Positions 1,469 through 40,132 of a DNA stretch of 64,000 nucleotides are shown here, one piece after another; position 1 is the first letter of the stretch; the number at the start of each line of letters is the position of its first letter. A model generated the notes under the pieces. The model did not search any database. It saw nothing but the letters and a program-made list of their open reading frames with translations, and was not told the origin of the DNA. This DNA comes from an uncultured delta proteobacterium (lineage in GTDB: Bacteria > Desulfobacterota > Binatia > UBA9968), in assembly GCA_963745035.1 (NCBI GenBank), contig CAVUVW010000020.1:84940-148939 (forward strand), given 5' to 3'. The position numbers and the translations under genes are program-made.

Positions 1469-1484
1469 TGGCATCGCGCTTGCT
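1469..1484 (+). promoter_or_regulatory. sigma54 -24/-12 promoter
   Basis: TGGCATCGCGCTTGCT (GG-N10-GC) upstream of the ferritin-like operon. Confidence 0.75.
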
Positions 1485-1534
1485 CCTCTCAATCGTCATC
1501 CTCCCATCGTTCCGTACCATGAAAGGAGATTCCC

Positions 1535-2734
1535 GTGAGCTTGGACCTGATGAAAGAAAAAGGCGTCGCGCTGGACCAACAGAAGTTCGACTGGCGCGAC
1601 ATCGTGCGCGCGCCGACGAGCAAGTTGAACGATGACGCATTCACCCGAGTGCGCATCATTTTGATGAACGGCATCGAATCGGAGGCGCTGCGATTCCAGC
1701 ACGCCTGCGCGCGCATGAACAAAGACCTGCAGCTCGCGCTGGCTCGTGTGCGGCGCGTAGAACAGCATCAACAAACGCTCGTCAATTGGCTACTGCCCGC
1801 CGACCTATCCCCGCTGGAAACCACCATCGGCTTCGAGCAGGTCGCCATCGAGGTCACCGCCAGCGTCGCGCAGCACGAGCCCGACCCGTATCTCGCCCAG
1901 GTGTACCGCTTCGGACTGCTCGAGGATTTCGATCACCTGTACCGCTACGCGGCGCTCATGGACCGCATGATGGGCTGCGATGCCAACAACATCTTGCAGA
2001 GCTACACCGACATTCTTCCGGGACGGCCAACGGCGGTCGAGCACCGCGCGCCCGAGGATGATTTGCGCAAGCCTTACGACCGCCGCAAAGCGGCGCCGAT
2101 CACCAAGCTAAACGCGGTCACGATTATGGGCGGCGAGCATCAGACTCATGATTATTACATGACGATCGGCCCCATGTTCGCCGACCCGATTGCGCGACAA
2201 TTGTACGCCGAGATTGCCTCAATTGAGGAACAGCACGTGACGCAGTACGAGTCGATCATCGACCCGGAGGAGACTTGGCTGGAAAAGTGGCTGCTGCACG
2301 AGGCCGTCGAAATTTACAACTATTATAGCTGTCTCACCTACGAGACGAACCCGCGCATCAAGACCATCTGGCAGCGCTTCGTGGACTACGAACTCGGCCA
2401 TCTGCATTTTGTCTTGGAGCAGTTCCAGAAATTCGACAAGCGCGATCCGGCTGAAATCCTTCCGGAGTCCCTGCCGGAGCCCATCGAATACAAAAGCCAT
2501 CGGGAATTTGTCCGCAAGGTGCTGAGCGAGGAAGTCGATCTGCGCGCCCGCGGCGCGGAGTTCATCGACAAGGAGAAGGAGGAGGCCGACGCGCCATCGC
2601 AGATCTACCGGGCGCAAATGAATGCTAACGGCTCGCCTTCGGAAACGGTGGCGGCGGGCTACCAATGGAAGCCTGGCACCGAGTTGGCGGAAGAGACCGC
2701 GGATATTCGCAAGCTGCAAAAAAAAGTCGCGTAG
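1535..2734 (+). CDS. Ferritin-like (probably tandem di-metal four-helix-bundle) protein
   Basis: Repeated E/ExxH motifs (LEDFDHL, GEHQTH, IEEQHV, YELGHL); AGGAG RBS, GTG start. Confidence 0.75.
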   Translation: MSLDLMKEKGVALDQQKFDWRDIVRAPTSKLNDDAFTRVRIILMNGIESEALRFQHACARMNKDLQLALARVRRVEQHQQTLVNWLLPADLSPLETTIGFEQVAIEVTASVAQHEPDPYLAQVYRFGLLEDFDHLYRYAALMDRMMGCDANNILQSYTDILPGRPTAVEHRAPEDDLRKPYDRRKAAPITKLNAVTIMGGEHQTHDYYMTIGPMFADPIARQLYAEIASIEEQHVTQYESIIDPEETWLEKWLLHEAVEIYNYYSCLTYETNPRIKTIWQRFVDYELGHLHFVLEQFQKFDKRDPAEILPESLPEPIEYKSHREFVRKVLSEEVDLRARGAEFIDKEKEEADAPSQIYRAQMNANGSPSETVAAGYQWKPGTELAEETADIRKLQKKVA

Positions 2735-2749
2735 CGACGGGAGGAATAT

Positions 2750-3649
2750 ATGGCAATGGGAACCGAAGAAGCTAAGTCACAAGACAAGGATATCATCGAT
2801 CTGCCCGAGGAGTTTTTCGTCAACCGGACCGGCATCATGCTCAATCCCACTCTTGGGGCGGAGCTGCTCCAGGGCGCCAAGGAAAAGGAAACAATACCGA
2901 GCTCGGAAGGCGACGGCGACGAGCTGCGGCTGGAACGGGCGGAGTATGTCGAGGAAGCGCTGCCGCTCGGCTCTTACCCGTCGGTAGTCGGTGGGATGAT
3001 GGACGCGGGTCAGGACGAGGAGCCGTCGCCAGACGATAACCGCATGGCGGTCCTGCTCGACAAGCTCGGCGAGCGCCTGGCCTTCGAACGGCAAGGGACC
3101 AGGCTGTATGAAGCCTTTATCCAAAAAGTCGAAACGCTGGCCAGCGCGGATGGGAACGGCCCGGATATCGACAATCTCCGCCACATCTGCGCGGAGGAGC
3201 TAGAACATTTCAAGCTGCTGCAAGAGACGATCGTGGAGCTCGGCGGCGATGCCACCGTGCAATCCCCTTCCGCCGACGTCGCCGGCGTGCTTTCCCACGG
3301 CGCGCTGCAGATCGTGAGCGACCCGCGCACGACCGTGGCGCAGGGGCTGCAGGCTCTTCTTACCGCTGAGTTGGTGGACAACGACGGCTGGGAGATGCTG
3401 CAAAACCTCGCCGAGCAACTGGGCCATGCCGATCTCGCGGCGGAGTGCGGCTCGGCTCTCGAGGAGGAGCGCGAACATTTGGAATCGGTGCGCACCTGGG
3501 CATCGAACCTGACGTTGAGCGAAGCCGTCGGCGCTGATGGCCTGATCGACGCCGAGGAACAGGAAGAGGAAGGAGAAACCGAGACGACAAGCCGCAGCTC
3601 CGGCAGGAAGAAGTCTTCCGGAAGCAAGAGCAAGCGCAAGAAAAAGTGA
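2750..3649 (+). CDS. Ferritin-like domain protein with acidic linker and Lys/Arg-rich tail
   Basis: LGERLAFERQGTRLYE, EELEHF, AELVDNDGW, EEREHL; C-terminus RKKSSGSKSKRKKK. Confidence 0.85.
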   Translation: MAMGTEEAKSQDKDIIDLPEEFFVNRTGIMLNPTLGAELLQGAKEKETIPSSEGDGDELRLERAEYVEEALPLGSYPSVVGGMMDAGQDEEPSPDDNRMAVLLDKLGERLAFERQGTRLYEAFIQKVETLASADGNGPDIDNLRHICAEELEHFKLLQETIVELGGDATVQSPSADVAGVLSHGALQIVSDPRTTVAQGLQALLTAELVDNDGWEMLQNLAEQLGHADLAAECGSALEEEREHLESVRTWASNLTLSEAVGADGLIDAEEQEEEGETETTSRSSGRKKSSGSKSKRKKK

Positions 3650-3674
3650 CTTCTTAATATCTGCCTTCTTGACC

Positions 3675-3701
3675 CGGCGGGCGGGCATTCCCCGCCCGCT
3701 G
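3675..3701 (+). terminator. Putative intrinsic terminator hairpin
   Basis: CGGCGGGCGGG-cattc-CCCGCCCGCTG directly after the operon. Confidence 0.5.
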
Positions 3702-3762
3702 CACCCTTTCACGCCAACGTCTCGCCCTCCTCCGTTACGAATGCGGGTCGTGGTTCAGTTCG

Positions 3763-3836
3763 GAAAGATCTCTCACTTCGTTCGAGATGACAGAACCGTT
3801 ACGTTTGTCATTTCGAGTGGATGCGAGAAATCTTTC
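3763..3836. repeat. Palindromic intergenic element (AGATCTCTCACTTCGTTCGAGATGACA family)
   Basis: Imperfect inverted arms; related single arm at 9690-9717 and related element at 16653-16730. Confidence 0.7.
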
Positions 3837-3900
3837 CCCGATGTTATGCCCTGGGAGTCAAACTGCACCACTACTCGATTGCTAGATCCTAACGAGCGAG

Positions 3901-3916
3901 CGGCACGGCAGTTGCT
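3901..3916 (+). promoter_or_regulatory. sigma54 promoter
   Basis: CGGCACGGCAGTTGCT just upstream of the yihY ATG. Confidence 0.7.
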
Positions 3917-3931
3917 CCGTAACGAAACATC

Positions 3932-4837
3932 ATGTGGCAGTTTCTCAAGAAGACCGTTTACAACTGGATCGACGATGAGCCGTTTGTCCTCGCTGCCGCG
4001 CTTTCGTACTACACGCTTTTTTCCCTGGCGCCGCTATTGACCATCGCGATCGCAATGGCCGGGCTGTTTTTCGGCCAGGAGGCCGCGCAAAACCAGGTCG
4101 TCGAAACCACGCGGGGACTGGTCGGCAAGGAAAGCGCGCAGGCGATCCAGGAGATGATTGAAAGCGCCGGCGAGAAGCCTGCGGCTGGGATCATATCGAC
4201 TCTGTTCGGCGTCATCGCGCTGCTCTTCGGCGCCGGCGGCGTGGTCGGACAACTGCAAGCTTCTTTGAATAAAGTGTGGGGTGTGGCACCGAAACCTGGT
4301 CAGGGAGTATGGGGCTTCATCCGGCAGCGCTTTGTTTCCTACGCCATGGTGCTTTCGATCGGCTTTCTGCTGCTCGTGTCGCTGATCGTCAGCGCCGTAC
4401 TGTCCGGCATGTCCCGGCTCCTCGGCAATATGTTCGGCGGCGCCGAGGCGCTGGTCCATGGACTCGATCTACTCGTGTCCTTCGCCTTCATCACCTTGCT
4501 CTTCGCGATGATCTACAAGTTTCTTCCAGACGCGCGCATTCGCTGGAAGGACGTGTGGATCGGCGCCGTGTTCACGTCGCTGCTGTTCACGATCGGCAAA
4601 TCGCTGATCGGGCTCTACCTCGGCAACAGCGGCGTGACCTCGGTTTACGGCGCCGCGGGGTCGCTGATCACGGTGCTTCTGTGGGTTTATTATTCCGCGC
4701 TGATCTTCTTCTTCGGCGCCGAGCTCACGCGGGTGTACGCTACCGAATACGGCTCCGGCGTGGCGCCCGCGGATAACGCGCGGCTGGTCGACGCCGAGAA
4801 GACTACGGAGACGGAGCGGAAATCCGCGCGCGCTTGA
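3932..4837 (+). CDS. YihY/virulence factor BrkB family membrane protein
   Basis: AAALSYYTLFSLAP, YGAAGSL..LLWVYYS motifs; multiple TM helices. Confidence 0.95.
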   Translation: MWQFLKKTVYNWIDDEPFVLAAALSYYTLFSLAPLLTIAIAMAGLFFGQEAAQNQVVETTRGLVGKESAQAIQEMIESAGEKPAAGIISTLFGVIALLFGAGGVVGQLQASLNKVWGVAPKPGQGVWGFIRQRFVSYAMVLSIGFLLLVSLIVSAVLSGMSRLLGNMFGGAEALVHGLDLLVSFAFITLLFAMIYKFLPDARIRWKDVWIGAVFTSLLFTIGKSLIGLYLGNSGVTSVYGAAGSLITVLLWVYYSALIFFFGAELTRVYATEYGSGVAPADNARLVDAEKTTETERKSARA

Positions 4838-4899
4838 TGAGTCCGGCGGGGCGAATTGGCTCGCCCCCGGCCCGGACGAGAGACACTTCCGTTCCGAAA

Positions 4900-5346
4900 C
4901 TAACTCGCTTTGCGAAGCCGCCGGTGCTTGGCCGTCTCGAGCTCCTCGCCGAGCTCTTGCAGCTCGCTCGCGTTCATCAGCTTGCGGACTTTGGGGAACA
5001 TCATTTGTTCCTCTTCTTCTTCCGCATGATGCTCGATGTTGTCCGCCAACACTTTGAGCTTGGCTTTGAACTTTTCACTGGTCGAACCGAGCCGGGACAT
5101 TTCGCGCAGCAGGGTCTTTACCTGCTTGTGCTCCTCGACCGATTCCAGGGTCATCTCCTTTAACTCTTCGTGCTCGGCCACCGCCGGATAAAAAATCGTC
5201 TCCTCGATGCGCGCGTGGATCTCGAGCTCGGCCTTGATCTCCTTGAAGAGCTGCCGCTGCTTTTTTTTGTCTTCCGTTTCCTTGGCCTGGGTCAGCAGTT
5301 GTTTCACCTTGTGGTGGTCCTGCTTCAATAACTCCAATGCGTCCAT
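4900..5346 (-). CDS. Hemerythrin/HHE cation-binding domain protein
   Basis: MDALELLKQDH, HARIEE.IFYP, EEH, HHAEEEE..MFP. Confidence 0.9.
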   Translation of the reverse strand: MDALELLKQDHHKVKQLLTQAKETEDKKKQRQLFKEIKAELEIHARIEETIFYPAVAEHEELKEMTLESVEEHKQVKTLLREMSRLGSTSEKFKAKLKVLADNIEHHAEEEEEQMMFPKVRKLMNASELQELGEELETAKHRRLRKAS

Positions 5347-5391
5347 ACGATCCTCCTGGCTTGCGATAGTGTGTCGTCACCGCGAGCCTGG

Positions 5392-5407
5392 AGCAAGGCA
5401 CATGCCA
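5392..5407 (-). promoter_or_regulatory. sigma54 promoter
   Basis: Reverse complement TGGCATGTGCCTTGCT upstream of hemerythrin. Confidence 0.75.
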
Positions 5408-5558
5408 TGCCTGGCGATTTCCCGGAGCCCTCTCTACGCGGCGCGCGCGATTCCGGAGCACCCTCTTCAGTGGCACATATTCAAGCGATCTTTTCTCCTT
5501 CTTGAGACAGACGACGCGCCGCGCGCGAATGTTTGCGCGCCGTGACGCGCGCTGCTCG

Positions 5559-5574
5559 TGGCATTTCGATTGCT
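5559..5574 (+). promoter_or_regulatory. sigma54 promoter
   Basis: TGGCATTTCGATTGCT; divergent partner of the 5392 promoter. Confidence 0.75.
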
Positions 5575-5619
5575 CCTCCTCAGAATTGCTGAGAATAGAT
5601 TGCACGTAAAGGAGATCTT

Positions 5620-5883
5620 ATGGAGACCCAACCTTACACCGTCAACGATCATCGGACCGAAGATCAATTCACCAAGAGCGTCGAAGAATACACCGCCGCC
5701 CTGCCGTCCTCCGCTTATCTGGCGATCGCCATTGCGGCGATGGCGGCATCGCTCGCGCTGCAAGTCAGCGGCCGGGAAAAGTGGGGCAACTTCATCGCCC
5801 AGTGGGTGCCCACGTGGCTCGTTATCGGTCTCTACAACAAGCTCGTCAAGCTCGAAGGACACGACCGGCTCGACCGGTCTTGA
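5620..5883 (+). CDS. Small membrane hypothetical protein
   Basis: 87 aa, two hydrophobic segments (FIAQWVPTWLVIGLYNKLVK); AAGGAG RBS. Confidence 0.8.
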   Translation: METQPYTVNDHRTEDQFTKSVEEYTAALPSSAYLAIAIAAMAASLALQVSGREKWGNFIAQWVPTWLVIGLYNKLVKLEGHDRLDRS

Positions 5884-6133
5884 TACCCGGCATTCGCCGA
5901 TCTTGGTGAGGAGGTGAGCTTTGTTTATTTAATGGAGCAAGAAGAGAATATTTCGAGTGCAGCTATTGCAGGTAGAGATTCAACTTCAAAAAAGAAGCGG
6001 CGAAACACGAAAGGAACTGTTCGAAACGAGACGGTTAAAACAGTTCGCGCGGCAAGGTTTGGCTACAAACCGGCTTAATGATGTCCAAGGCGAGTTTCTG
6101 TTTATCGTCTCCCAAAAGGTCGAAAGGTGAGCT

Positions 6134-6616
6134 ATGGAAAGCAGAGCCAAGTTTCTCGGCCATCCCGCGCATCAGATGCTGATCGTTTTTCCGCTGGGAC
6201 TGCTGGCGACCGCGGTGATATTCGACGTGATCTATCTTGTGGGCGGCGGGGAGAACATGGCGCTCGTCGCATACTGGATGATCGCCGCCGGTATCATCGG
6301 CGGCTTTCTCGCCGCGCCGTTTGGCTGGATCGATTGGTTCGCGATTCCGGCGGGGACGCGCGCCAAGTCCGTCGGGTTATGGCATGGCTCCGGCAATACG
6401 ATCGTCCTGTTGCTTTTCATCGGTAGCTGGCTCCTGCGCCGCGATGTGCCGGACCGCCCGGAAGCGCTGGCGTTCGCGCTCTCGTTCGCGGGCGCAGGTT
6501 TGGCGTTGTTTACCGGCTGGCTGGGCGGCGAGCTGGTCGATCGCCTGAGCGTCGGCGTCGACGACGGCGCTCACCCGAACGCGCCGAGCTCATTGTCGCG
6601 CCGCCCCGCCCATTGA
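6134..6616 (+). CDS. DUF2231 family membrane protein
   Basis: GHPAHQML.VFPLG, LWHG.GN, GWLGGELV motifs. Confidence 0.9.
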   Translation: MESRAKFLGHPAHQMLIVFPLGLLATAVIFDVIYLVGGGENMALVAYWMIAAGIIGGFLAAPFGWIDWFAIPAGTRAKSVGLWHGSGNTIVLLLFIGSWLLRRDVPDRPEALAFALSFAGAGLALFTGWLGGELVDRLSVGVDDGAHPNAPSSLSRRPAH

Positions 6617-6651
6617 GACGGTTGGTTGCAGGGCGCTCACAGAGCCGCTCG

Positions 6652-6667
6652 TGGCATGTTGCTTGCT
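6652..6667 (+). promoter_or_regulatory. sigma54 promoter
   Basis: TGGCATGTTGCTTGCT. Confidence 0.75.
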
Positions 6668-6723
6668 CAAAATTTTGGCAAACTAGAGAAGTCGACGGAA
6701 TTTAACTCACCAGAGGAGGATTT

Positions 6724-6975
6724 ATGGGGATTATCGGATGGATATTGTTCGGCTTGGTTGTGGGAATTGTCGGAAAGTTCCTGATGCCGGGGCGCGATCC
6801 CGGAGGATTTATCCTGACAATCCTGCTCGGTATTGCCGGCGCGCTGCTCGGCGGATTCCTCGGCCAATCCCTTGGGTTTTACCGCGAAGGCGAGCCGGCG
6901 GGATTCCTCATGGCCGTCCTGGGATCGATCGTACTCTTGCTGCTTTATCGTTTGTTTCTCGGCAGGCGCGCCTAG
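6724..6975 (+). CDS. GlsB/YeaQ/YmgE (transglycosylase-associated) stress membrane protein
   Basis: WILFGLVVG..GKFLMPGRDPGG..TILLGIAGA; GAGGAGG RBS. Confidence 0.95.
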   Translation: MGIIGWILFGLVVGIVGKFLMPGRDPGGFILTILLGIAGALLGGFLGQSLGFYREGEPAGFLMAVLGSIVLLLLYRLFLGRRA

Positions 6976-6993
6976 GAGAAGCTTTTGAAAACC

Positions 6994-7020
6994 GGCGCGG
7001 CGGGGATCCCCCGCCGCGCC
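6994..7020 (+). terminator. Putative (bidirectional) terminator hairpin
   Basis: GGCGCGGCGGGG-atc-CCCCGCCGCGCC. Confidence 0.55.
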
Positions 7021-7037
7021 CTTGCGCCCGCCCCGAG

Positions 7038-7181
7038 CTATTCCAAGTCGCGCCGAAAATAGAAGTCCACGCTAAACGAAGCCAACAGCATTCCATAGAG
7101 ATACCCGACCGATTCGAGCAGACCGGGTAAGGTCTGAATCACGTGCCAGAAAATTCCCAACATCAACAAGCTGGTGATCAT
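7038..7181 (-). CDS. Possible small membrane protein (47 aa)
   Basis: MITSLLMLGIFWHVIQTLPGLLESVGYLYGMLLASFSVDFYFRRDLE; no strong RBS. Confidence 0.3.
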   Translation of the reverse strand: MITSLLMLGIFWHVIQTLPGLLESVGYLYGMLLASFSVDFYFRRDLE

Positions 7182-7470
7182 GGCGAGCTAGAGTAGCAGA
7201 TCGCGCGCGCATCGCCAAGAAATCCTGTCTTTTATCGATTAGCTGGATTTTTCAGCCGGGGCGATTGCGCGAAATTCGACAACCACCCACGGCTCTGCCG
7301 CTTCGCCCCTCGGTACTACGTCGATTGCTAGTTTCTCGGAATGATCGAAATCTCGCCCGTGCGCTCGATGATGCACCAGCCGACGCGCTGGGCGGTCCAG
7401 ACGCGGCTCTGGAAATTCACATCGGCGTGGACTTCTATCGAGCTTGGCCGCGCGCGAGGCGCGAAAGCAG

Positions 7471-7914
7471 CTACTGGAACCGCCGATCCGGTGCGGTTTC
7501 CACCGGATCGTGGCCGTCGCCGCGGTCGCGGTGTTTGAAGAGCTTGGAAGCATAATCGCGCGCGAGCGCCACCGCCGTCGCGGTCACCACCCCACTCAGC
7601 ATGCCGACCAGGCTCTGCGTGATCCCAGCGCGCTGCTGCTGGGCCGCCGCGCGCGCCGGCCAATCGTCAGGCAGCTCCAGTCGCGCCCTCGGCGTGGGGC
7701 GGCCGAGCACCAAGCCGCTCAGGAAATAGCCGGTGGCGACGGACAAGCCGATCATGAGCCACGGGCGCCGCTCGGTCTGATAGTTGAGATCGAAAGAGCG
7801 CTTCACTTCCCGGATGGTTCCGTCCACGCGCTCTTCCAGGGTGGCGATCTTCTCCGCCATGCCGGCGCGGGTGGCTTCTATCTCGTGTCGTATTTCACGC
7901 TGCGTGTTATCCAT
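7471..7914 (-). CDS. DUF3618-domain protein
   Basis: EIRHEIEATRAGMAEKIATLEER then PW + hydrophobic helix; follows the holin-X-like gene as usual. Confidence 0.8.
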   Translation of the reverse strand: MDNTQREIRHEIEATRAGMAEKIATLEERVDGTIREVKRSFDLNYQTERRPWLMIGLSVATGYFLSGLVLGRPTPRARLELPDDWPARAAAQQQRAGITQSLVGMLSGVVTATAVALARDYASKLFKHRDRGDGHDPVETAPDRRFQ

Positions 7915-8300
7915 CGTGCATCCTCTTTGGCGTTTTCAATGGTGGTCGTCGGCACCAGGTTGGTGTTAGCGGCGCGCCGCTTGCCGGCGAGCAGGACGGC
8001 GAGGCCTACCACCGACAGCGCCGCTCCGACGATGCCGTAGCATGCCCAGAGAGTGAGCTCGGTGTATTCCTCCAGCACATACACCACCGTAAACGACAGC
8101 AGAATTCCGCCCAACAACAAGCTTGCCGCGCCCACGCCGATCAACACCACGGTCGATTTGGCGTTCGCCATTTCCTCGCGCATCTCCAGGCGCGCGGCCG
8201 TGATCTCCTTTGAAATCAGATCACTGGCGTCGCGGAAAATGCCGCTGACGAGCGACGAGATGCTCGGCTTTTTCGGTTCCTCCAGCCGGTAGTCTTGCAT
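7878..8300 (-). CDS. Phage holin family (holin-X/YqjE-like) membrane protein
   Basis: SISSLVSGIFRD.SDL.SKEI..ARLEM, two TM helices, P..TIE. Confidence 0.85.
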   Translation of the reverse strand: MQDYRLEEPKKPSISSLVSGIFRDASDLISKEITAARLEMREEMANAKSTVVLIGVGAASLLLGGILLSFTVVYVLEEYTELTLWACYGIVGAALSVVGLAVLLAGKRRAANTNLVPTTTIENAKEDARWITRSVKYDTR

Positions 8301-8319
8301 AAGAACCTCGCTTGCCGGC

Positions 8320-8676
8320 TCAGTGCCGGCGGCGCAGCGCCAGCAGCACACCGGCGGCGACGCCGACCAGCATCGACGTGCCTGGGTGCTGGCGAATATA
8401 TTGGCTGATCCGGCGGGTGATGTCTTCGTAGCGTCTGTCGGTGAAGTAGCTCGCGCCACGATCCAACGTGTCGGCCAAGCGCGTTGCCGTGTCGTGGATC
8501 TTCGACTCCACGCGCGGCCCGCTCTCGCGGATCCGGCCGGCGAAATTTTTCATCTGACTACCGACCTTGTCGGCGGTTCGGTGCGCCGCCGCGGCGGCGC
8601 GCTCGCGCGCTCTTTCGGAGTTTCTCGCCTCTTCGGAACGAGCCTCATTCAGATTTTCAAACTCATCATGTTCCAT
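8320..8676 (-). CDS. ElaB/YqjD/DUF883-like tail-anchored protein
   Basis: Charged helical N-terminus, YIRQHP then a C-terminal TM helix and RRRH; GAGG RBS. Confidence 0.75.
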   Translation of the reverse strand: MEHDEFENLNEARSEEARNSERARERAAAAAHRTADKVGSQMKNFAGRIRESGPRVESKIHDTATRLADTLDRGASYFTDRRYEDITRRISQYIRQHPGTSMLVGVAAGVLLALRRRH

Positions 8677-8725
8677 AAACACACCTCGGTTTTTGTCCCA
8701 CGCTAGCGCGGGCACTCTCAAAGAC

Positions 8726-8741
8726 AGCAATAAAGATACCA
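8726..8741 (-). promoter_or_regulatory. sigma54 promoter
   Basis: Reverse complement TGGTATCTTTATTGCT. Confidence 0.65.
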
Positions 8742-9079
8742 AAAGCCGACAAATCGCGTCGCCGTTTCATCTGCCAAGGCGAGCGCCCGCGGAACGAGTG
8801 CAGATGAGGCCGAGACATCGGCGAGGCGACTTGCGGCGTCTTCTCGGTGCCGCATATTTACGTGATTAATTTCCGGCGTCGCGAGCGGGCAACGCCGCAA
8901 AAATTTTATGTCGCCCCACGTGCGGGACAGGTGTCCCGCGCGGAAATCAATCTCGATCTCAGTAGCTTGGCGCGCAAGCTGGATATTTTGTATCGTTTCG
9001 CGGACAGAGAAGTCTTTCCGCTTAGCAGCTATGGGACACAACCTGGTCATTTAACCGCGGATTGTCCGCGTTTATGCCG

Positions 9080-9095
9080 TGGTACGTCCGTTGCA
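9080..9095 (+). promoter_or_regulatory. sigma54 promoter
   Basis: TGGTACGTCCGTTGCA upstream of csbD. Confidence 0.7.
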
Positions 9096-9134
9096 AAATG
9101 ATGAGCTATCAGAATTTGAAGGAGGCAAAAAACC

Positions 9135-9329
9135 ATGAACTGGGATCAGGCAGCAGGAAACTGGAAGCAGTTTAAGGGCAAAGTCAAAGAGCAGTGGGGC
9201 AAGCTCACCGACGACGAACTCGATGAAGTCGCCGGCAAGCGCGATCAACTCGTCGGAAAGATTCAAAAACAGTACGGAATCAGCAAGGAAGAAGCCGAGC
9301 GCCAAGTAAAGACCTGGGAAACTCAATAG
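9135..9329 (+). CDS. csbD: CsbD/YjbJ general stress protein
   Basis: MNWDQAAGNWKQFKGKVKEQWGKLTDDEL...GKRDQLVGKIQ.QYG. Confidence 0.95.
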   Translation: MNWDQAAGNWKQFKGKVKEQWGKLTDDELDEVAGKRDQLVGKIQKQYGISKEEAERQVKTWETQ

Positions 9330-9358
9330 TCTTCAGTTCACCCTTTCCCGCCACCGTC

Positions 9359-9391
9359 GGACCGGCAGCGAAAACCCTTCGCTGCCGGTCC
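9359..9391 (+). terminator. Terminator hairpin
   Basis: GGACCGGCAGCGAA-aaccc-TTCGCTGCCGGTCC, 14-bp perfect stem. Confidence 0.65.
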
Positions 9392-9729
9392 GATCCTTCC
9401 AGATTAGCACGGACAACGCCGGGCTCTTCTTCCGTGGTTCACGTCTTAGAATGCTAAGCAGGAATCCATTCTGGAGTGAATTCTGGAGTGACAAAACGTT
9501 AGCGTTCCGTCATACCCGCGCTTCGACGTTGCTCAGGATAAACTCCGGCGGGTATCCAGCTAATTGCGGCGGAGAACAAACCTGGATTCGTTGCGCGGGA
9601 ACGACGAATCGTGAGGAAAACGTGCCGAGGAAAATCTGCATTCATCTTCCAAAGCTTATGAATCACTCCTTTGAAAAATGCCGCTAGCGAAGATTTCTCA
9701 CTTCGTTCGAAATAACAAGTGAATCACCG

Positions 9730-9745
9730 TGGCATATGCCTTGCT
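9730..9745 (+). promoter_or_regulatory. sigma54 promoter
   Basis: TGGCATATGCCTTGCT. Confidence 0.75.
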
Positions 9746-9757
9746 CAAACTGGGCTG

Positions 9758-10540
9758 GTGATTGAGCGCACGATTCGCATCGCGGCGGTAGGCGATCTTC
9801 ACTACCGGGCCGGCAGCGAGGGAAAATTCAAATCGGCCTTCGCCGAGATCTCCGATCTCGCCGACATTCTTCTCCTGTGCGGCGACATCATCGATTACGG
9901 CCTGCCTGAAGAAGCGCGCATGCTGATGAAAGACATCAGCGAAACCGCCAAACGCATCACCATCATCGGCGTGCTCGGCAACCACGAATTCGAATCCGGC
10001 AAAGTCGACGAGGTGGTGCAGATCTTCAAGGGCGGCGGCATCACGATTCTCGACGGCGAGGCCTGTGAAGTGCAAGGCGTCGGCTTCGCCGGAGTCAAAG
10101 GTTTTCTCGGTGGATTTGGCGGCCGCGTGCTCGCGCCCTGGGGCGAGCCGAGCATCAAGCACTTCGTCCACGAGGCGGTCGAGGAGGCGCTCAAGCTCGA
10201 ATCGGCCTTGGCGCGGCTGCGCACCCCGTCGCGCATCGCGCTGCTGCACTATGCGCCGATTCGCGCCACGGTCGAGGGCGAGCCGCCGGAAATTTTTCCG
10301 TTCCTTGGCTGCAGCCGCTTGGAAGAACCTTTGAACCGCTACCCGGTCGCGGCGGCGTTCCATGGTCACGCGCATAACGGCGCGCCCGAAGGCAGGACCA
10401 GCGGCGGCATCCCGGTCTACAACGTCGCCATGAAGCTGTTGGAGAAAACTTTTCCCGGCCGCATGCCCTGCCGGATCATCGAAGTGCGGGCCGGCGCCGA
10501 GCAGCGCGGCGACGCCGCTCACGCGCCGCCGCCGGTATAA
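9758..10540 (+). CDS. Calcineurin-like metallophosphoesterase
   Basis: GDLH, CGD, GNHE, LLHY, HGHAH motifs; start moved to GTG 9758 because the promoter lies inside the longer ORF. Confidence 0.9.
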   Translation: MIERTIRIAAVGDLHYRAGSEGKFKSAFAEISDLADILLLCGDIIDYGLPEEARMLMKDISETAKRITIIGVLGNHEFESGKVDEVVQIFKGGGITILDGEACEVQGVGFAGVKGFLGGFGGRVLAPWGEPSIKHFVHEAVEEALKLESALARLRTPSRIALLHYAPIRATVEGEPPEIFPFLGCSRLEEPLNRYPVAAAFHGHAHNGAPEGRTSGGIPVYNVAMKLLEKTFPGRMPCRIIEVRAGAEQRGDAAHAPPPV

Positions 10541-10544
10541 TCCC

Positions 10545-11336: not shown

Positions 11337-11346
11337 CGGCAGCAAA

Positions 11347-11433: not shown

Positions 11434-11476
11434 TTTTGCGTCTCTGCGGAACTTCTCCCGCGTGCTGCGCAGGACG

Positions 11477-14145: not shown

Positions 14146-14158
14146 GCGACGCGGAAAG

Positions 14159-18145: not shown

Positions 18146-18175
18146 GGGCTCCTCGCGCCGACAGCGACGCGTTCG

Positions 18176-32300: not shown

Positions 32301-35300
32301 CGCGCCGGTCGCATCATTGATCCAGATCAGCACCGGCGCGCTGTCGGCCAAAGCCTTGAACCGCTGCTCGCTCTCGCGCAGCTCGGCTTCGGCGCGCTTG
32401 CGCTCGCGGATGTCGCGGCTCACGTTGGCGATGCACATGGGCTTGCCGGTGATCGGATCCTTGACCAGGAAAAACGCGCGGTAGGCGTCGATCGCCGCGC
32501 CGGTTTTTTGATGCTTGAGCGGCAGCTCGCCTTCCCACACACCGTGGGTCACCAGCTCGGGTAGCACGGTTTCCTGGAAAAATCCCTGCGACTCCTCGGC
32601 GACGAAGTCTACCGGACGCCGGCGGCGGATCTCTTCCATGTCCTCGACACCGACCATCGCCCGCCCCGCCGGGTTGAGATAGATGCCGTTGCCGTCGGGC
32701 TCGGCCATGCCGATGTAGTCGAGGCTGCTCTCCACCAGCGCCTGGAACTTGAGCCGCTCCTCCTCGGCGCGCCGGCGCTCGGTCACGTCCATATTGATGC
32801 CGAGCACGCGCACAAGCTTGCCGTCCTCCCCGTAGTAGCCCCGGCCGCGCGAGGAGATCCAGCGGAGCTCGCCCGAGCTGTGGAGAATTCGGTATTCGAC
32901 GTTGAAGCTCTGGCGCCGGCGGATCGCCTCGCCGCGCTCGGCTTCGACGCGCGCGAGATCGTCGACGTGGACGAGCTTGCGCCACTCTTCGTAATTTTCG
33001 ACCGCGCGGCCGACGCCGTACAGGTTGAGCATTTCGTCGGTCCACGACAGCCGGTTGGAATCGGGCTCCCAGTCCCAGATGCCGACCCGCGCCGCGCTCT
33101 GCGCCAGCCGGAGCTGCTCCTCGCTGCGCCAGAGGATCTCCTGGGCGATGATGCGCGCGCTGATATCGCGCGCGATCTTTGAGGCGCCGATGATTTCGCC
33201 GCGGTCGTTCTTGATCGGCGAAATGGTGAGCGACACGTGGATCTCGCAGCCGTCCTTGCGCCGCCGCAGGGTCTCGTAGTTTTCGATCGCCTCGCCGCGG
33301 GCGATGCGCCCGAGGATCGCCCGCGCCTCCTGAAACTCGCTGTCAGGGGTCAGCACCCATACCGACTGGCCTAGGATCTCCGCCGCCGAGTAGCCGTAGA
33401 GGTTTTCCGCGCCGCGGTTCCAACTGGCGATGGTCCCGACCAGATCGATGCTGAAAATGGCGTCCTGCGAGTTCTCCACGATGGCCGCGAGCCGTGCGCG
33501 CGCCACCTCGGAAAGCTTGCGTTCGGTGATATCGCTGTTGACGCCGATCAGGCGCACCGGCCGTCCCTCGGCGTCGCGCACCATGCGGCCGGTGGCGACC
33601 AGCCAGCGCTCACCGGTAGCCGGATGGCACCAGCGGTACTCAAAGTTGAATTCGGTGCCGCCGCGAAACAACTCCTCGTTGTAGCTCAGGAGCCGTCGGC
33701 GGTCCGTCTTGTCCAGCGCCAACAGCCACTGCTTGTAGGTCACCGGCTCGTCGACGGAAAATCCGTGCATGGCGCGGAACGAGTCGCTCACTTGCGCACG
33801 GGCGCTCACCAGGTCGAGATCCCAGACGCCGCTCCGGCTCGCCTCCACCGCCAGCGCCAAGCGCTCCTCACTCTCGCCGAGCGCGCGCTCGGCCTGGCGG
33901 CGCTCCAGCATGCGCTCGGCTTGCTGCACGTAAAGATCCAGCAGGCGCAGCTCGCGCTCGGTTAACCGCCGCGGCTCGGCAAAATGAGTCGAGAGCATGC
34001 CGAGCAATTTGCCGCCTTGGCTGCACAGCGGGGTGGATTGAGACGCGGCGATGCCGTAAGCGCCCAGGAAGGCCGCGGTCTCGGCAAACTCGCTCGCCTT
34101 TGCGAGGTCTTCGATAATAACCCGCTCGCGCCGCGCCAGAGCGACGCCGCAGGAGCACATCGAATCAGCCCGAACGACTTTGAAGTTCTCGGAAAACCTC
34201 TGGTCGAATCCCTTCTGCGCCACCAGCCTCAAGCAGCGCTCGCCTTCGTCGTAGAGCTGCATCGAGCCCTTGTCGGCGCCAAGGAGCTGATTGCAGGCGT
34301 CGAGGACAAGGCTAAGCATCGCTTCCAGATCGTTCTCCACCAGCAGCGCCGCGCCGAGCTCGTGCAGCCGCGTCATTTCGGTTAGATCCATGGCCAAGCG
34401 GTCGCGCAAGGTGATCAGCTCAAGCTCCGCGCGCTTGCGCTCGGTCAGATCGACGGTCGTGCCCAGGAGCTGGGCCGGGCGGCCGTTCTCATAAAACACT
34501 TGGCCGCGCGTCTTGATCCAGCGCTCCACGCCGTCGTCGTGGCCGATGACGCGAAACTCGACGTCAAACCGGCCGGTGCCGGCGGGGTCCAGCGCCGGCT
34601 CCATCGCCGCCTGGGCCGCGGGGCGATCGGCCGGATGGATCGCCTGCATGAAGACATCGTAGGTCAGCGGCGCGCCCGCACGCATGCCCCAGTGGGCGCG
34701 CAGGCGATCGTCCCAGAGCGTCTGGACGGTCTGGAGCTGCCATTCGTAGATGCCGACTTCGGCGGTATCGAGAGCGAGTTGCAGGCGCAGCTCACTGCGC
34801 GCCAGCCGATCTGCCTGCCCGCGCGCCTCCTCCAGAAGGCGCAGGCGATCCTTGGTCATGGCCACGTAATGGGAGATCGTGCGCAGCGACTCGATCTCAT
34901 CGGGCTCGAAGACTTCGCGGCGCTTGCTGGCGAAGGCCAACGTACCGAGCAGCCGATCGCCGACCAGCAGCGGATGGCAGACGTAGGCGCCGAACCCGGC
35001 TTGCCGCAGGTGCTCCGACTCGGGATCGGTCCGCTCTTGGAGCCGCTCGACGAGCAGCGGCGCCCGGCTTGCTGCGACCACACCGCAGCACGTCGCGTCG
35101 AAGCCGACGCGGGGCGGCGCGAGGTCGGCGGGCAGCCCCGCCGAAGCTTGCAACACCAGCGCCGCGCCGTTCTCCTCGACGTCGTAGCTGAGGTAGCCGT
35201 CCACGTCGAGATGCTGCCGCACGGTGGCGAAGAGATTGCGCATCATCGCCGCCGCATCTTGGGCGACCAGAAGCTGCTCGGCTGCTTTGGTCAGCAACCG

Positions 35301-36155
35301 CAGCCGGTCGTTTTGTTGGCGTAGCTGCGCTTCGCTCTCGTGCAAAGCGTCGTGCAGGCGCCGCGAGCTGTCGATTTCCGTGCTCGTGCCGATCCATTGC
35401 CTGACGCGGCCGGCCTCATCTTTTATCGGCACGCTGCGGCTGAGATGCCAGCGATAGGAGCCGTCCTTGCCACGCAGGCGAAACTCCGCCTCGTGCGGGA
35501 CACCGCTGTGTACGGCCTCCTCCCAGGAGCGGCGCGCGTCCTCGATGTCTTCGGAGTGGACCAGCGCCCAGCCTTCGTCGATGGCGCTTTGATCGGCGCC
35601 GCCGGTGTACTGGCTCCATCGCTGGTTGATGAACTCGAGCCGGCCCGAGGGTGCCGCCGTGAACACGATCTGCGGCGTCAGGTCGGCGAGCTCGCGGAAG
35701 CGCTGCTCGCTTTGCCGCCGCGCGGCTTCGCTTTCCGCCAGCTCGGCGCGCAAGCGCCGGTTTTCGCTTTCCTGCTCGCGCAATCGCAGCAGCGCGCGCG
35801 CCGCCCCGATCAATGCGTCTGCGCCGATCGGTTCGGTCAGCCGCGCGTCGGCGCCGGCGGCCAAAGTTTTGGCGCGCGCCTGGTTGGTTTTGCCCGCGGC
35901 GCAGATTTGCAGGACGAGGGCGTCGGCGAAGTGATTTTTAATCGCGCGGGAAAGCTCGTTTCGGTCGTCGTCGCCGAGTTTGGCTCCGAGCAGCACCAGC
36001 GCCGGGTGGGCCTCGGCTGCAAGCTCGATCGCCGCCTGACTGGCCGCCGCCTCCACCACGCGATAGCCGGCCTGCCGGAGCAGCCGGCTCCGGGCGCGGC
36101 GCCCGTCTTCGTCGCCGTCGACGTTTAGAATTGTCTGGCTTTCAACTGCCCTCAT
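29313..36155 (-). CDS. Giant cytoplasmic hybrid sensor kinase (pseudo-REC, about 9 PAS, 2 GAF, HisKA, HATPase, 2 REC)
   Basis: [26 protein letters not shown]; two C-terminal receivers (LMDIQMP, FLDISLP); no TM helices seen. Confidence 0.95.
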
Positions 36156-37188
36156 GAACGCGGTCCAGGTTGGAGGCATAGCCGGCAGCGCCGTGGGCGC
36201 CGAGATTGGCGGTACAGTTCAGCGATTCCTCGCGCGGAGACGCATAGCGCCGCGGCAGAACGAGGGAAAAAGTCGAGCCGGCGCCGAGCTCGCTTTCGAG
36301 GGTGATCCGGCCGCCCAAGAGCGCCGCCAGCTTGCGGCACAGCGGCAGGCCCAAACCAGTGCCCTTCCCCGGGCTCCACGCCCGACCGTTCGCCGGGCTC
36401 CATTCGTCGAAAATGCTTTCCTGTTCGGCGCGCGCCATGCCGGCGCCGGTATCGCGCACCGAGAATACTACCGTGCCGCTTGACGGGTCATGGGCGGCGC
36501 TTACCCGGACTTCGCCCCGCGCCGTAAACTTGAGAGAGTTGTTGATCAGGTTGCGCAAGATTTGCGAGACCTTGCCTGGGTCGGAATACAAGGAAGGAAT
36601 ATCAACCGGCGCGTCAAAAACAAGACGCACGCCGGCACGCACGAGCGGCGCCGGCAGCATGCCTTGCAGCATGCTCAGCAGACCGGCAGCATCGAATTCC
36701 GCCGGCCGCACTTCGACTTCGCCGCCATCGACCTTGGCCGGGTCGGCGAGGTCGTCGGCCAGATCGAGAAGCGCGTCCGCCGCCTTGCGGATCAACTCCA
36801 CCGATTGCTCCTGCTCGCGGCTCAGCTCGCCGTCGGCGCGGCGCAGCAGCAAAGTCGTCAGCGCGAAAATGGAATGCAGCGGGCTGCGCAGCTCGTGGCC
36901 CAGGTTGCGCAAAAACCGACTGCGCGCCGCATCCGCGTCTTGAAGCCGGCGCACTTCTGCGCTGCGTTCGGCGTCGCGCGTCAGCAGCCGGCGGATGGAG
37001 TCGGCGAGCTTGGCGTTTTCATACTCCAACTGCCGCGCGCGCTCCTCGGGAGCGCGCACCTCCGGTCGCTCGGCCGCAAGCGCGATCCGGCGCTCCCCGC
37101 GGACCACATCCTGAAGTATCCCATGGGCATCCAAGCTCACTGCCTTCCTGGCTCGGCGTAGCGGCTTAAGCTCTTCTCTTGCGTTCAT
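36142..37188 (-). CDS. Sensor-less histidine kinase (coiled coil-HisKA-HATPase)
   Basis: FLRNLGHELRSPL, NSLKFT, DTGAG, KGTGLGL. Confidence 0.88.
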   Translation of the reverse strand: MNAREELKPLRRARKAVSLDAHGILQDVVRGERRIALAAERPEVRAPEERARQLEYENAKLADSIRRLLTRDAERSAEVRRLQDADAARSRFLRNLGHELRSPLHSIFALTTLLLRRADGELSREQEQSVELIRKAADALLDLADDLADPAKVDGGEVEVRPAEFDAAGLLSMLQGMLPAPLVRAGVRLVFDAPVDIPSLYSDPGKVSQILRNLINNSLKFTARGEVRVSAAHDPSSGTVVFSVRDTGAGMARAEQESIFDEWSPANGRAWSPGKGTGLGLPLCRKLAALLGGRITLESELGAGSTFSLVLPRRYASPREESLNCTANLGAHGAAGYASNLDRVHEGS

Positions 37189-37715
37189 GGTTTCCTCCCG
37201 GACGCAAGCACGCTTCCTTGCTTGCGACTTTGCTCGGTGCTCCCCCGCCGCCGACAGATATGGTCCATATCGCCAGCCTCGTGGCCGGAGCTTAGCCCTT
37301 ACGGGCGGCTTTCATCAACCGTTCGCTGAAGCTGATGTCAGACACCATCCGCAGCGGTTGCAGCAGCGGCCCCGGCAGCAAGCTGCGAGGCGAGCGCAAC
37401 ATGTGCGGTCGCTGGCTTCGCGCCCGTGAAAAACCGCACCGGAGCATCGCTGCGTGACCTCTATCACAACAGAAAAACCGCCGGTAAACAGCACGCGTGA
37501 CAAAAGCACAGGCAGCGCGCAAAACATATGCCCGGAGCCGAACTGTGCGATTATCGGGACTCAATCCCATAATCGTCCCAGCGAAGCGACAGAATTTCCG
37601 GCACATTGCTCCGCATTCGGGACAACAGGGTGCAGGAACAAAGTGGGGAACGAACGAGATGACGCCGGAGAGGTAACCGGCAAGTGGCGGGAAGCGGAGC
37701 GGATTTTACCGAGAG

Positions 37716-39194
<1,479 letters not shown>

Positions 39195-39197
39195 GGA

Positions 39198-39758
39198 TCA
39201 GGCCTTTTCGATTTTTTCGGTGAGATCGTGAATGCCGTCGATGCTCCGCGAGATGCTCTCGTAGGTTCTGTGGGGCAGCGCGCCGGACAGGCGCATGAGA
39301 TCCACTTCGCCGCGAATCGCCTGCAAATGGTTGCCGATCTTGTGCGCGAGCCCACGGCCTTCGCACGTGAGGGCAGGCGTGTAGCGGCTGAGAACCACGG
39401 TGGTGCCATCCGCCGCCAAAAGCTGTTGCGCGGTTTCTTGCAGCTCGATGGCGCGTGCCGTTCCGCGTGGCAGAAAACCGTAACGGCACGCCATCGGCTG
39501 CGCCTCTTCGTAAAGCGCCCGGCAAAACGTCAGAAAGCTGTCTCGGTCATCCGCTTCTACGCGCGCCAGCCAAAGCTCCTTGTCGGCGCAAAACTCGGCG
39601 GCACTGAAACCGAGCAGCGCCGTGGCCGCGCCGTTGAGAACGCATCGCTTCCGATCCACGCTCCACAGCGCGGCCGGAGCGGTATCGAGCTCCAGAACTG
39701 CGGTGGCGGGCAGGGCCATCGCCGCGAGCCTGCTGTTCGGGTGCCCAACCGCGCGCAT
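39198..39758 (-). CDS. PAS domain plus truncated HisKA helix (pseudo-kinase)
   Basis: PAS_3-like LLGFS..EF...WL.RV..DDR; LAHKIGNHLQAI; no ATPase domain. Confidence 0.7.
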   Translation of the reverse strand: MRAVGHPNSRLAAMALPATAVLELDTAPAALWSVDRKRCVLNGAATALLGFSAAEFCADKELWLARVEADDRDSFLTFCRALYEEAQPMACRYGFLPRGTARAIELQETAQQLLAADGTTVVLSRYTPALTCEGRGLAHKIGNHLQAIRGEVDLMRLSGALPHRTYESISRSIDGIHDLTEKIEKA

Positions 39759-39915
39759 TGAACCGATTCGCGGGCGCTAGGCCCCGCGCCTCCCTAACAG
39801 GCCTGGACATACAACCGTACGAATCACCCGGCCGAGCCTCCAAATGATCGCGATGATCGCGCGCCCTGGTGCGTGGAAACAGCTCTGGTTTGGCGGAGCG
39901 CACCGCGTCTAGCGT

Positions 39916-40104
39916 CTAGTGGAGCGCCAATTCGCTGATCTCGATGGTTTCGGTGTCGAGCCCAAGTTGCGACGCTTCGATGTAACAGCCATAGCAGACG
40001 ATCATGTCGAGCAATCGTACACCGTCGCTGTCGCTCACCACCCTATAGGAGTCGCCGGCGCGATATTCGCCGCAACGATCGCAGGGAAAAACAAAAATAC
40101 TCAT
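39916..40104 (-). CDS. Small CxxC...CxxC zinc-finger-like protein (62 aa)
   Basis: CDRC and CYGC; own sigma54 box. Confidence 0.7.
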   Translation of the reverse strand: MSIFVFPCDRCGEYRAGDSYRVVSDSDGVRLLDMIVCYGCYIEASQLGLDTETIEISELALH

Positions 40105-40116
40105 GGCGCCTGGAGC

Positions 40117-40132
40117 CGCAAGGCGCATGCCA
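40117..40132 (-). promoter_or_regulatory. sigma54 promoter
   Basis: Reverse complement TGGCATGCGCCTTGCG. Confidence 0.75.

Follow-up and report, generated by a model that had tools for sequence, protein, structure and literature searches.

The 64,000-nucleotide (nt) window analyzed here, positions 84,940 to 148,939 of contig CAVUVW010000020.1 (C20) in assembly GCA_963745035.1 of an uncultured Binatia bacterium, carries a dense series of TGGCAY-N5-TTGC boxes that, judged by their sequence and setting, are very likely sigma-54 (-24/-12) promoters. We consider it probable that these genuine sigma-54 promoters mark an island, at C20:63.6-125 kb, of protective genes equipped with their own sensory apparatus in a soil/rhizosphere member of the Binatia. 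Motif statistics, gene identities, the presence of rpoN and of bacterial enhancer-binding proteins (bEBPs), conservation, and clustering were all computed here and form the basis of this reading; the activity of the boxes, the pairing of activators with boxes, and the nature of the signals are what we infer. Positions without a contig name refer to the window, and C12, C13, C14, C17, and C27 are other contigs of the same genome (7.43 Mb in 28 contigs, ~58% G+C, 92.6% complete, 5.8% contamination).

Throughout, a strict box is an exact TGGCAY-N5-TTGC (10 fixed positions), weaker boxes are scored by the number of those positions matched, and an oriented box is an intergenic one with a start codon no more than 250 nt downstream on the same strand. 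An earlier, sequence-only reading of the window had listed 18 GG-N10-GC sites, mostly of the form TGGCAY-N5-TTGC, and had placed all but one of them just upstream of a gene or operon. All 18 are indeed such boxes, 12 of them exact, with nine of the ten positions matched at 3901, 8727, 9080, 28532, and 48549 and eight at the weakest, 27183 (CGGTAT..TTGC). Seven minus-strand boxes start 1 nt later than listed (5393, 8727, 14160, 18470, 19339, 40118, and 48549). With a further 9/10 box at 37519 that was absent from the list, the window holds 12 exact and six 9/10 boxes. With the exception of 16521, each listed box is followed by a gene called on the same strand, at a distance of about 13-70 nt (135 nt for 48549). 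The checks and refuting conditions given along with the list included enrichment over shuffled DNA, an rpoN gene in the genome, and conservation upstream of orthologs, and these three came out in its favor. The 12 exact boxes compare with 0.30 expected (standard deviation 0.54, maximum 3) from 100 dinucleotide shuffles of the window; a single rpoN locus (C14:356742-358004) reaches 402 bits with TIGR02395, whose cut-off is 277; and boxes are kept upstream of orthologs in other species of the genus, with variable spacers.

Genome-wide, 114 boxes occur with the N5 spacing, compared with 17, 11, 25, and 29 for N3, N4, N6, and N7, respectively, while scrambled half-sites gave 17-26 matches and the pattern read backwards gave 23. 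No fewer than 94 of the 114 are intergenic, as against 15.3% of the genome, and 79 are oriented, with a distance to the start codon of most often 40-59 nt. The flanks of these 79 boxes show no conservation, and the boxes therefore do not derive from a repeat that was copied around the genome. About 27 loci encode a full sigma-54 AAA+ domain, and P-II and an ammonium transporter, both classical sigma-54 targets, are among the genes behind strict boxes. Because the spacing is specific, because the boxes are intergenic, oriented, and conserved, and because rpoN and bEBPs are present, the promoter reading is supported. One-mismatch variants add 570 sites, 170 of them intergenic and 105 oriented, for 184 oriented boxes with at most one mismatch; since the variants contribute those 105 oriented sites, the true sigma-54 regulon probably comprises 150-200 promoters.

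The motif might conceivably be a dispersed repeat instead, or be bound by some other DNA-binding protein. Such an explanation could draw on four boxes that lie implausibly near start codons and on the base 3′ of TTGC, which in the 79 oriented strict boxes is T in 39, G in 31, C in 9, and never A (the base after it being mostly C), a departure from the sigma-54 consensus, which ends in TTGCW. We nonetheless regard it as very improbable in the face of GG and GC elements set exactly 10 nt apart, with counts that collapse at any other spacing, strand polarity toward genes, unconserved flanks, the coexistence of rpoN with many bEBPs, and the P-II and ammonium transporter genes behind boxes.

Forty related genomes served to assess conservation: 24 belong to the GTDB genus of the source genome and the remaining 16 to two other families of the order (f2 and f3). 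For every homolog, the highest-scoring box within 250 nt upstream was taken; some loci belong to an unpublished genome, G005. As background, a box of at least 9/10 precedes 134 of 6039 genes of the source genome (2.2%). For csbD, such a box was found at 11 of 11 loci with at least 63% identity, where it lies 51-116 nt before the start and the spacers differ, and at 6 of 6 loci in a group with 37-43% identity, and the figure for all csbD loci is 17 of 30. For homologs of the CBS-pair gene, it was found at 18 of 26 loci, one of the misses having just 30 nt of upstream DNA. Hemerythrin loci with at least 50% identity had the box in 11 of 16 cases (two pairs possibly being one gene seen twice), two further such loci had TGGTCT variants at the same place, and the figure for all hemerythrin loci is 13 of 28. 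Most of the genus shows high box counts, and regions around the ortholog of the island's activator bEBP1 (described below) are box-dense in five relatives, with 10-14 boxes of at least 9/10 per 40 kb. Conservation at the level of the order was unsupported: the f2 and f3 genomes gave no csbD, CBS, or hemerythrin matches at the thresholds used, the f3 genomes (G026-G040) contain 9-21 strict boxes against 8-19 in the backwards control, which is no excess, and the five f2 genomes have 0-2 BON genes each, with a nearby box at one of seven BON loci. The box wiring looks genus-specific.

The boxes are also clustered. The densest cluster of the genome is C20:63.6-125 kb (window -21,300 to 40,130), a span of 61.5 kb that holds 22 oriented boxes with at most one mismatch, compared with ~1.5 predicted from 184 in 7.43 Mb, so that box density is ~14 times the genome average. 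When the 184 oriented boxes are counted in 40-kb bins, the mean is 0.98, with 16 in C20:60-100 kb and 13 in C20:80-120 kb, and the next clusters lie at C12:20-80 kb (9) and C27:180-220 kb (7). The island extends ~21 kb beyond the left end of the window, its right limit being box 40118, and it is larger than the sequence-only reading saw. Back-to-back divergent box pairs number 10 in the genome, with 109-338 nt between boxes, and all of them fall within the three clusters; those of the window are 5393/5559, 8727/9080, and 14160/14426. Such pairs suggest shared enhancers. Similar divergent pairs are visible in the islands of relatives.

One could argue that the promoters are real and that their clustering has no regulatory meaning, sigma-54 being merely the favored alternative sigma factor of the genus (150-200 promoters) and each target belonging to an independent, signal-specific unit (osmotic, oxidative, DNA damage, nitrogen or carbon) and not to a coordinated program. 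The diversity of genes behind the 184 oriented boxes, with 81 Pfam families matched by the 79 first genes, would suit this explanation, as would the high box counts in most of the genus and the presence of several kinases and two bEBPs in the island. It must contend with an island density some 14-fold above average, with the confinement of all 10 back-to-back pairs to clusters of functionally alike genes, with the recurrence of the same families behind boxes in three separate clusters, and with a common element, TGTCCCA, enriched in the island. On balance, we hold it to be doubtful, if by no means negligible.

As for the targets, an unbiased count of the gene next to each of the 79 strict boxes is led by the families BON (5), CBS (3), and Usp (2). 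Families of the general stress response (GSR) type stand behind boxes in the island and in the C12 and C27 clusters, including CsbD, BON/OsmY, YtxH, GlsB, ferritin-like, Ku/LigD, universal stress protein (USP), and superoxide dismutase (SOD). More specifically, boxes of the C12 and C27 clusters precede genes for Fe/Mn and Cu/Zn SODs, PsiE, HSP20-Lon, SRPBCC, USP, DksA-like, CBS, and PaaA/C-like di-iron proteins. Pfam matches bore out most identities that had been read from the translations, namely CsbD, Transgly_assoc (GlsB/YeaQ), YtxH, Ferritin_2, hemerythrin, CBS, Ku, LigD, and the island's REC-AAA-HTH bEBP and PAS histidine kinases; the protein taken to be ElaB-like (8320-8676) has no significant Pfam family. 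The claim that this is the classic general stress gene set holds as far as the families are concerned, these being typical of SigB, RpoS, and EcfG regulons, and the word "general" is read from gene names. A "stress or dormancy island under sigma-54" is a well-founded description, unlike "the general stress response" of its host, and the physiological role would presumably be protection in stationary phase, desiccation, or dormancy.

Whether another sigma factor could fill the role was approached through the sigma-70-family loci. Five of the 16 such loci were scanned, and none of these five proved to be of RpoS or SigB grade; the other 11 lay outside the scan, and no search was aimed at EcfG/PhyR. 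The five comprise two RpoD-like, one RpoH, and two extracytoplasmic function (ECF) sigma factors, and their best scores were 252 for RpoS (cut-off 379) and 111 for SigB/F/G (cut-off 234).

The island encodes two NtrC-type activators. The first, bEBP1 (20972-22414, minus strand), has the domain order REC, sigma-54 AAA+, and HTH_8 (Response_reg 2.3e-30, Sigma54_activat 1.9e-69, HTH_8 5.3e-15), with GESGCGKE (Walker A) at residue 193, GSFTGA at residue 240, and IFLDE (Walker B) at residue 261; the Ser variant of the GAFTGA loop should be tolerated. It falls under all named equivalog cut-offs (NtrC, AtoC, ZraR, PspF, RtcR, and others), AtoC being best at 432 vs. 714 bits, with NtrC at 387 vs. 559. 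An ortholog that is 90% identical occurs in a metagenome-assembled genome labeled Candidatus Binatia bacterium, and orthologs of ~60% identity occur in six relatives. In three of the six (G004, G019, and G018) the ortholog has its own sigma-54 box, and in the other three (G014, G015, and G003) a PAS kinase, 31% identical to the kinase at 14758-16302, lies directly upstream. The second activator, bEBP2 (37716-39194, minus strand), likewise has REC, AAA+, and HTH_8 domains.

The bEBP1-CBS intergenic region (22467-22683, plus strand) carries TGTCCCA at 22467 and 22677, with CTGTCCTG ~37 nt before the latter copy. When this spacer is compared across three species, one of which is G005, the conserved blocks are two TGTCC blocks plus the box, TGTCCCAA and TGTCC[CT]G standing ~37 nt apart and being invariant or nearly so. 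Of 106 intergenic TGTCCCA copies in the genome, 9 are in the island; for 10 copies, a box follows 20-200 nt downstream, 7 of these being island copies. The element accompanies 7 of 26 oriented boxes on C20, compared with 5 of 158 elsewhere, and is single at most promoters that carry it. TGTCCCA is, on these positional counts, a candidate enhancer half-site for a subset of promoters. As a universal island enhancer it was rejected, with only those 7 of 26 C20 boxes marked and only 3 of 66 boxes in the relatives' regions. Other island promoters have other upstream repeats, GCGCGC-rich tracts, or other TGTC..GACA dyads, as seen by eye only. Several activators probably serve the island. That bEBP1 governs a TGTCCCA sub-regulon is possible, to our minds somewhat short of an even chance. 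The element also recurs outside the island: a stand-alone LigD primase-polymerase gene (C13:438054-439740) begins 259 nt after a strict box, with TGTCCCA 109 nt upstream of the box, a pairing that matches the island's CBS-Ku-LigD locus.

A bolder alternative would be a single master circuit, in which bEBP1 and a PAS kinase drive all boxes as one sigma-54 general stress response that replaces RpoS, SigB, or EcfG. The mid-island position of bEBP1, divergent from CBS-Ku-LigD with the conserved TGTCC blocks between, speaks for this idea, as do the orthologs of bEBP1 in similarly box-dense regions (three of six with their own box and three behind a PAS kinase), the five sigma loci without an RpoS- or SigB-grade member, and the TGTCCCA and box before the second LigD gene, 0.4 Mb into another contig. 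Set against it are the occurrence of TGTCCCA at only ~8 of ~24 island promoters, competition from ~27 bEBPs, an element that is not retained around the 60%-identical orthologs, the many stress-family genes that have no box, and 11 of 16 sigma-70-family loci that are unclassified. Such a circuit appears quite unlikely to us. The wiring proposed by the sequence-only reading, RpoN working through the island's bEBP and PAS kinases, is supported as regards its parts, all of which are present, and is unsupported as a description of the whole island, where TGTCCCA marks only ~8 promoters in a genome of ~27 bEBPs.

Several observations weigh against the reading of a sigma-54 island with its own activators. 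Only 13-16 nt separate the ends of boxes 3901, 9730, 14160, and 40118 from the called start codons, an unusual spacing that implies almost leaderless transcripts or miscalled start codons; the gene calls are home-made, and so is the 15.3% intergenic share derived from them. The RNA-library evidence (four runs from three studies, compared with window 1-20000) consists of assembled contigs of 95-99% identity, which cannot show start, strand, or level but only the occurrence of island genes in the libraries. These contigs span the hemerythrin gene (4688-5337), 7366-8127, 8233-8639, csbD (9140-9419), and 17475-18441; one stops at 18441, missing by 17 nt the start that box 18470 predicts, and another, 6455-6813, crosses box 6652. 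A csbD group of 45-51% identity has a box of at least 9/10 at 0 of 13 loci, and the CBS-Ku-LigD copy of G018 has none within 250 nt. As for the label "general", boxes of at least 9/10 precede 6 of 14 BON, 4 of 13 Usp, 2 of 3 CsbD, 1 of 2 Transgly_assoc, and 0 of 4 YtxH loci genome-wide, so that about a third to a half of such stress genes carry one. Autoregulation of bEBP1 through its own box, present in three relatives, was sought upstream of the gene in the source genome and rejected, as there is none. In bEBP2, the loop GSYGGA replaces GAFTGA and is degenerate, and the protein may not contact sigma-54. TGTCCCA precedes boxes in only one of the six regions around bEBP1 orthologs (3 of 66 boxes). 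Finally, a k-mer search, whose top 6-mers were GGGACA, CTGTCC, and GACAGA (9 vs. ~1 expected), counted the DNA of the three divergent pairs twice, and the enhancer reading rests on the position-based TGTCCCA counts and not on that search.

If the preferred reading of a sigma-54-controlled protective island is correct, its mechanism may be pictured as follows. Besides its own sensory apparatus, the island brings together small protective proteins, proteins of the envelope, proteins that deal with oxidative stress and iron, and DNA repair by end joining. RNA polymerase with sigma-54 would wait in a closed complex on every box until an activator of the NtrC type, phosphorylated and bound some 70-120 nt upstream of the transcription start, remodeled the complex using ATP and set off transcription, with island-encoded PAS, GAF, and hybrid histidine kinases as the likely inputs. 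Intergenic regions of six island promoters have two back-to-back boxes, where a single bound activator could feed both directions. Several activators would share the island, the ~8 TGTCCCA promoters being the best candidate for a bEBP1 regulon, namely those of csbD, the 8727 operon, an outer membrane protein, CBS-Ku-LigD, yflT, the bEBP2 operon, an NDP-sugar transferase, and the second LigD on C13. In its strongest version, the proposal would be that sigma-54 took over the role of RpoS, SigB, or EcfG in this genus, with one phosphorelay running from PAS, GAF, and hybrid kinases to bEBP1, which would bind tandem TGTCCCA between back-to-back promoters; the outcome would be an all-or-none desiccation or dormancy program of dozens of operons, including end-joining repair, with some transcripts nearly leaderless and with wiring that arose in the genus alongside expansion of BON, CsbD, and CBS. 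We think this version unlikely, though worth stating.

The individual features are as follows, in order along the window. At the left end, an exact box (TGGCATCGCGCTTGC, 1469-1483, plus strand) lies 52 nt before a gene for a 399-aa protein (1535-2734) with a weak di-iron/ferritin-like lead, which is followed by a Ferritin_2 gene (2756-3649). A 9/10 box (CGGCACGGCAGTTGC, 3901-3915, plus strand) lies 16-17 nt before the gene for a BrkB/YihY-type membrane protein (3932-4837); of the seven BrkB homolog loci found in the set of relatives' loci that was compared, two have a strict box 34-39 nt upstream. The first divergent pair consists of an exact box (TGGCATGTGCCTTGC, 5393-5407, minus strand) before the hemerythrin gene (4900-5346, minus strand) and an exact box (TGGCATTTCGATTGC, 5559-5573, plus strand) before the gene for an 87-aa membrane protein without a family (5620-5883). 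This protein and those encoded at C17:27902-28615 and C20:71666-71956 are paralogous small membrane proteins that lack a Pfam match and that each stand behind a strict box; the window copy and the C17 copy both start with METQPY, and Atlas look-alikes of the family are unnamed clusters from Acidobacteriota and Myxococcota. Next comes an exact box (TGGCATGTTGCTTGC, 6652-6666, plus strand) before a Transgly_assoc (GlsB/YeaQ-type) gene (6724-6975). In the second divergent pair, a 9/10 box (TGGTATCTTTATTGC, 8727-8741, minus strand) precedes three minus-strand genes, 8320-8676, 7878-8300 (Phage_holin_3_6), and 7471-7914 (weak DUF3618), the first of which has look-alikes in the Atlas that are leads only (LEA-like 0.92, DUF883 0.87), and a 9/10 box (TGGTACGTCCGTTGC, 9080-9094, plus strand) precedes csbD (9135-9329).

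Further along, an exact box (TGGCATATGCCTTGC, 9730-9744, plus strand) lies 13 nt before a metallophosphatase gene (9758-10540), followed by an NTP_transf_5 gene (10545-11336). The 13-nt distance is retained at the metallophosphatase ortholog of G013, and the G005 copy reads GTGCAT where TGGCAT is expected. The third divergent pair has an exact box (TGGCATTCTATTTGC, 14160-14174, minus strand) before the gene for a 256-aa protein without a family (13375-14145) and an exact box (TGGCATTTGTTTTGC, 14426-14440, plus strand) before a 74-aa open reading frame (ORF; 14494-14718). A PAS-PAS-HisKA-HATPase sensor kinase, AtoS-like and under every curated cut-off, is encoded at 14758-16302 on the minus strand. 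The orphan among the boxes (TGGCACGTGAGTTGC, 16521-16535, plus strand) is exact and has no called gene downstream; it faces the 3′ end of the minus-strand operon 16890-18400, and a 47-aa ORF starts ~100 nt downstream. The box could possibly serve this ORF, an antisense RNA, or a small RNA; an Rfam scan of the window gave zero matches and hence no explanation for it. That operon has its own exact box (TGGCACATCGGTTGC, 18470-18484, minus strand), placed before genes for a 74-aa lipoprotein-like product (18176-18400), an M48 peptidase (17477-18145), and the product of 16890-17480. An exact box (TGGCACTTCTGTTGC, 19339-19353, minus strand) precedes the gene for a beta-barrel outer membrane protein (18772-19302), with TGTCCCA at 19416-19422.

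On the other side of bEBP1, an exact box (TGGCACATTGTTTGC, 22748-22762, plus strand) precedes the CBS-pair gene (22791-23249), and the genes for Ku (23496-24386) and LigD (24502-27006) come next in the same orientation. The weak 8/10 box (CGGTATATTTCTTGC, 27183-27197, plus strand) stands before a YtxH gene (27262-27483) and an SRPBCC gene (27607-28356), and a 9/10 box (TGGCATGCGTTTAGC, 28532-28546, plus strand) before a YflT/ActD-like gene (28581-29153), with TGTCCCA at 28443. The newly recognized 9/10 box (GGGCATATGTTTTGC, 37519-37533, minus strand) precedes two minus-strand kinase genes, one encoding a HisKA-HATPase kinase (36142-37140) and the other a hybrid kinase of 2280 aa (29313-36155) with two GAF domains, several PAS domains, HisKA, HATPase, and three REC domains. 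The last island box (TGGCATGCGCCTTGC, 40118-40132, minus strand, exact, with TGTCCCA at 40172) precedes a 62-aa ORF (39916-40104), a PAS protein (39198-39758), and bEBP2; the PAS protein, bEBP2, and the two kinases are counted together as one operon target. The bEBP2 operon has this exact box even though the loop of its activator is degenerate; bEBP2 may work independently of sigma-54, or serve bEBP1 as a sink or partner. Outside the dense island, a 9/10 box (TGGAATGCCTTTTGC, 48549-48563, minus strand) lies 135 nt before the gene for a PAS/GDSL-like protein (47077-48414). It is the sole box of 44000-64000, a stretch with a G+C content of 0.51-0.56 save for one 2-kb bin (52-54 kb) at 0.66, and two genes scanned at its left edge encode a polysaccharide deacetylase and this PAS/GDSL-like protein; the stretch looks like a region separate from the island.

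In the part of the island upstream of the window, boxes precede genes for two BON proteins, an NDP-sugar transferase, 2-oxoglutarate dehydrogenase E1/E2, and a GT4 glycosyltransferase, with genes for topoisomerase IB and CheR-PAS/CheB nearby. The one-mismatch box before the E1 and E2 genes, with the bacterial topoisomerase IB gene adjoining (C20:65615-70274), is unexpected in a stress island. On C12, an HTH_Tnp_1 transposase gene (C12:47220-47647) begins 108 nt after a strict box, and this box may represent a promoter directed into an insertion sequence.

Sigma-54 is usually tied to nitrogen, flagella, the cell exterior, or stress operons that answer a single signal, and general stress responses are a textbook case of control by sigma-70-family factors. 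GSR-type effectors lying directly behind enhancer-dependent promoters would be an unusual way to wire a stress or dormancy program. If the reading is true, the regulon would stay tightly shut off pending the action of an ATPase activator, a property that suits a dormancy switch. The sequence-only reading knew of no well-described general stress response with this architecture, and the openly searchable literature (subscription journals and supplements lying outside the search) likewise yielded no account of CsbD, or of a general stress regulon, under sigma-54. The Binatia, as portrayed in one report, are a widespread uncultured lineage of soils and sponges known so far from metabolic predictions alone (PMC8262859). 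The island would then provide a first regulatory handle on them, and its promoters and bEBP1 are small enough for reporter work in E. coli without culturing the organism.

Among known systems, general stress responses are run by SigB in Bacillus, RpoS in enterics, and EcfG/PhyR in alphaproteobacteria. The island shares with them CsbD, OsmY/BON, YtxH, GlsB/YeaQ, Dps/ferritin-like, Ku-LigD, USP, and SOD targets; it differs in that theirs is a sigma-70-family factor freed by partner switching or proteolysis, whereas here there would be -24/-12 promoters in need of an ATPase activator. Dedicated sigma-54 stress modules, including PspF/psp, RtcR/rtcBA, NorR, and ZraR, are single operons that answer one signal each. 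They too meet stress with sigma-54 and a bEBP, but here dozens of promoters are at issue and bEBP1 lies outside all named equivalogs. A comparative survey of sigma-54 credits SigB and RpoS with the general stress response, links sigma-54 to the cell exterior, and lists PspF under "control of membrane stress response" (PMC3162934).

In Borrelia burgdorferi, sigma-54 stands above a stress sigma in the Rrp2-RpoN-RpoS cascade (PMC2940757, PMC4014564). The two systems have in common a response-regulator bEBP and sigma-54 at the head of an adaptive or stress program, but in Borrelia sigma-54 drives essentially one promoter, that of rpoS, and RpoS does the rest, whereas the boxes here stand directly before effector genes.

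The nearest described system is that of the sigma-54/EBP starvation and sporulation regulons of Myxococcus. For example, Nla28 of Myxococcus xanthus is an NtrC-type activator that acts on tandem half-sites to switch on genes for stress-resistant spores (bioRxiv 10.1101/2021.11.28.470282). The half-sites differ, being TGTCCCA here and CT(C/G)CG(C/G)AG for Nla28. The promoters of the island are packed together and back-to-back, unlike those of Nla28, which that report describes as mostly intragenic, and the targets here belong to small GSR-type families (CsbD, BON, YtxH, GlsB, Ku/LigD, SODs, and USP). The tandem half-sites of Nla28 lie ~25 bp apart on average; a candidate counterpart here is the pair of TGTCC blocks ~37 nt apart at CBS, and TGTCCCA is enriched in the island, but the element is single at most promoters and lacking in the islands of five of the six relatives. 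What the two would share is NtrC-type activators with partner kinases, many sigma-54 promoters (fired after starvation in Myxococcus), targets that serve stress-resistant resting cells, and a lineage rich in EBPs.

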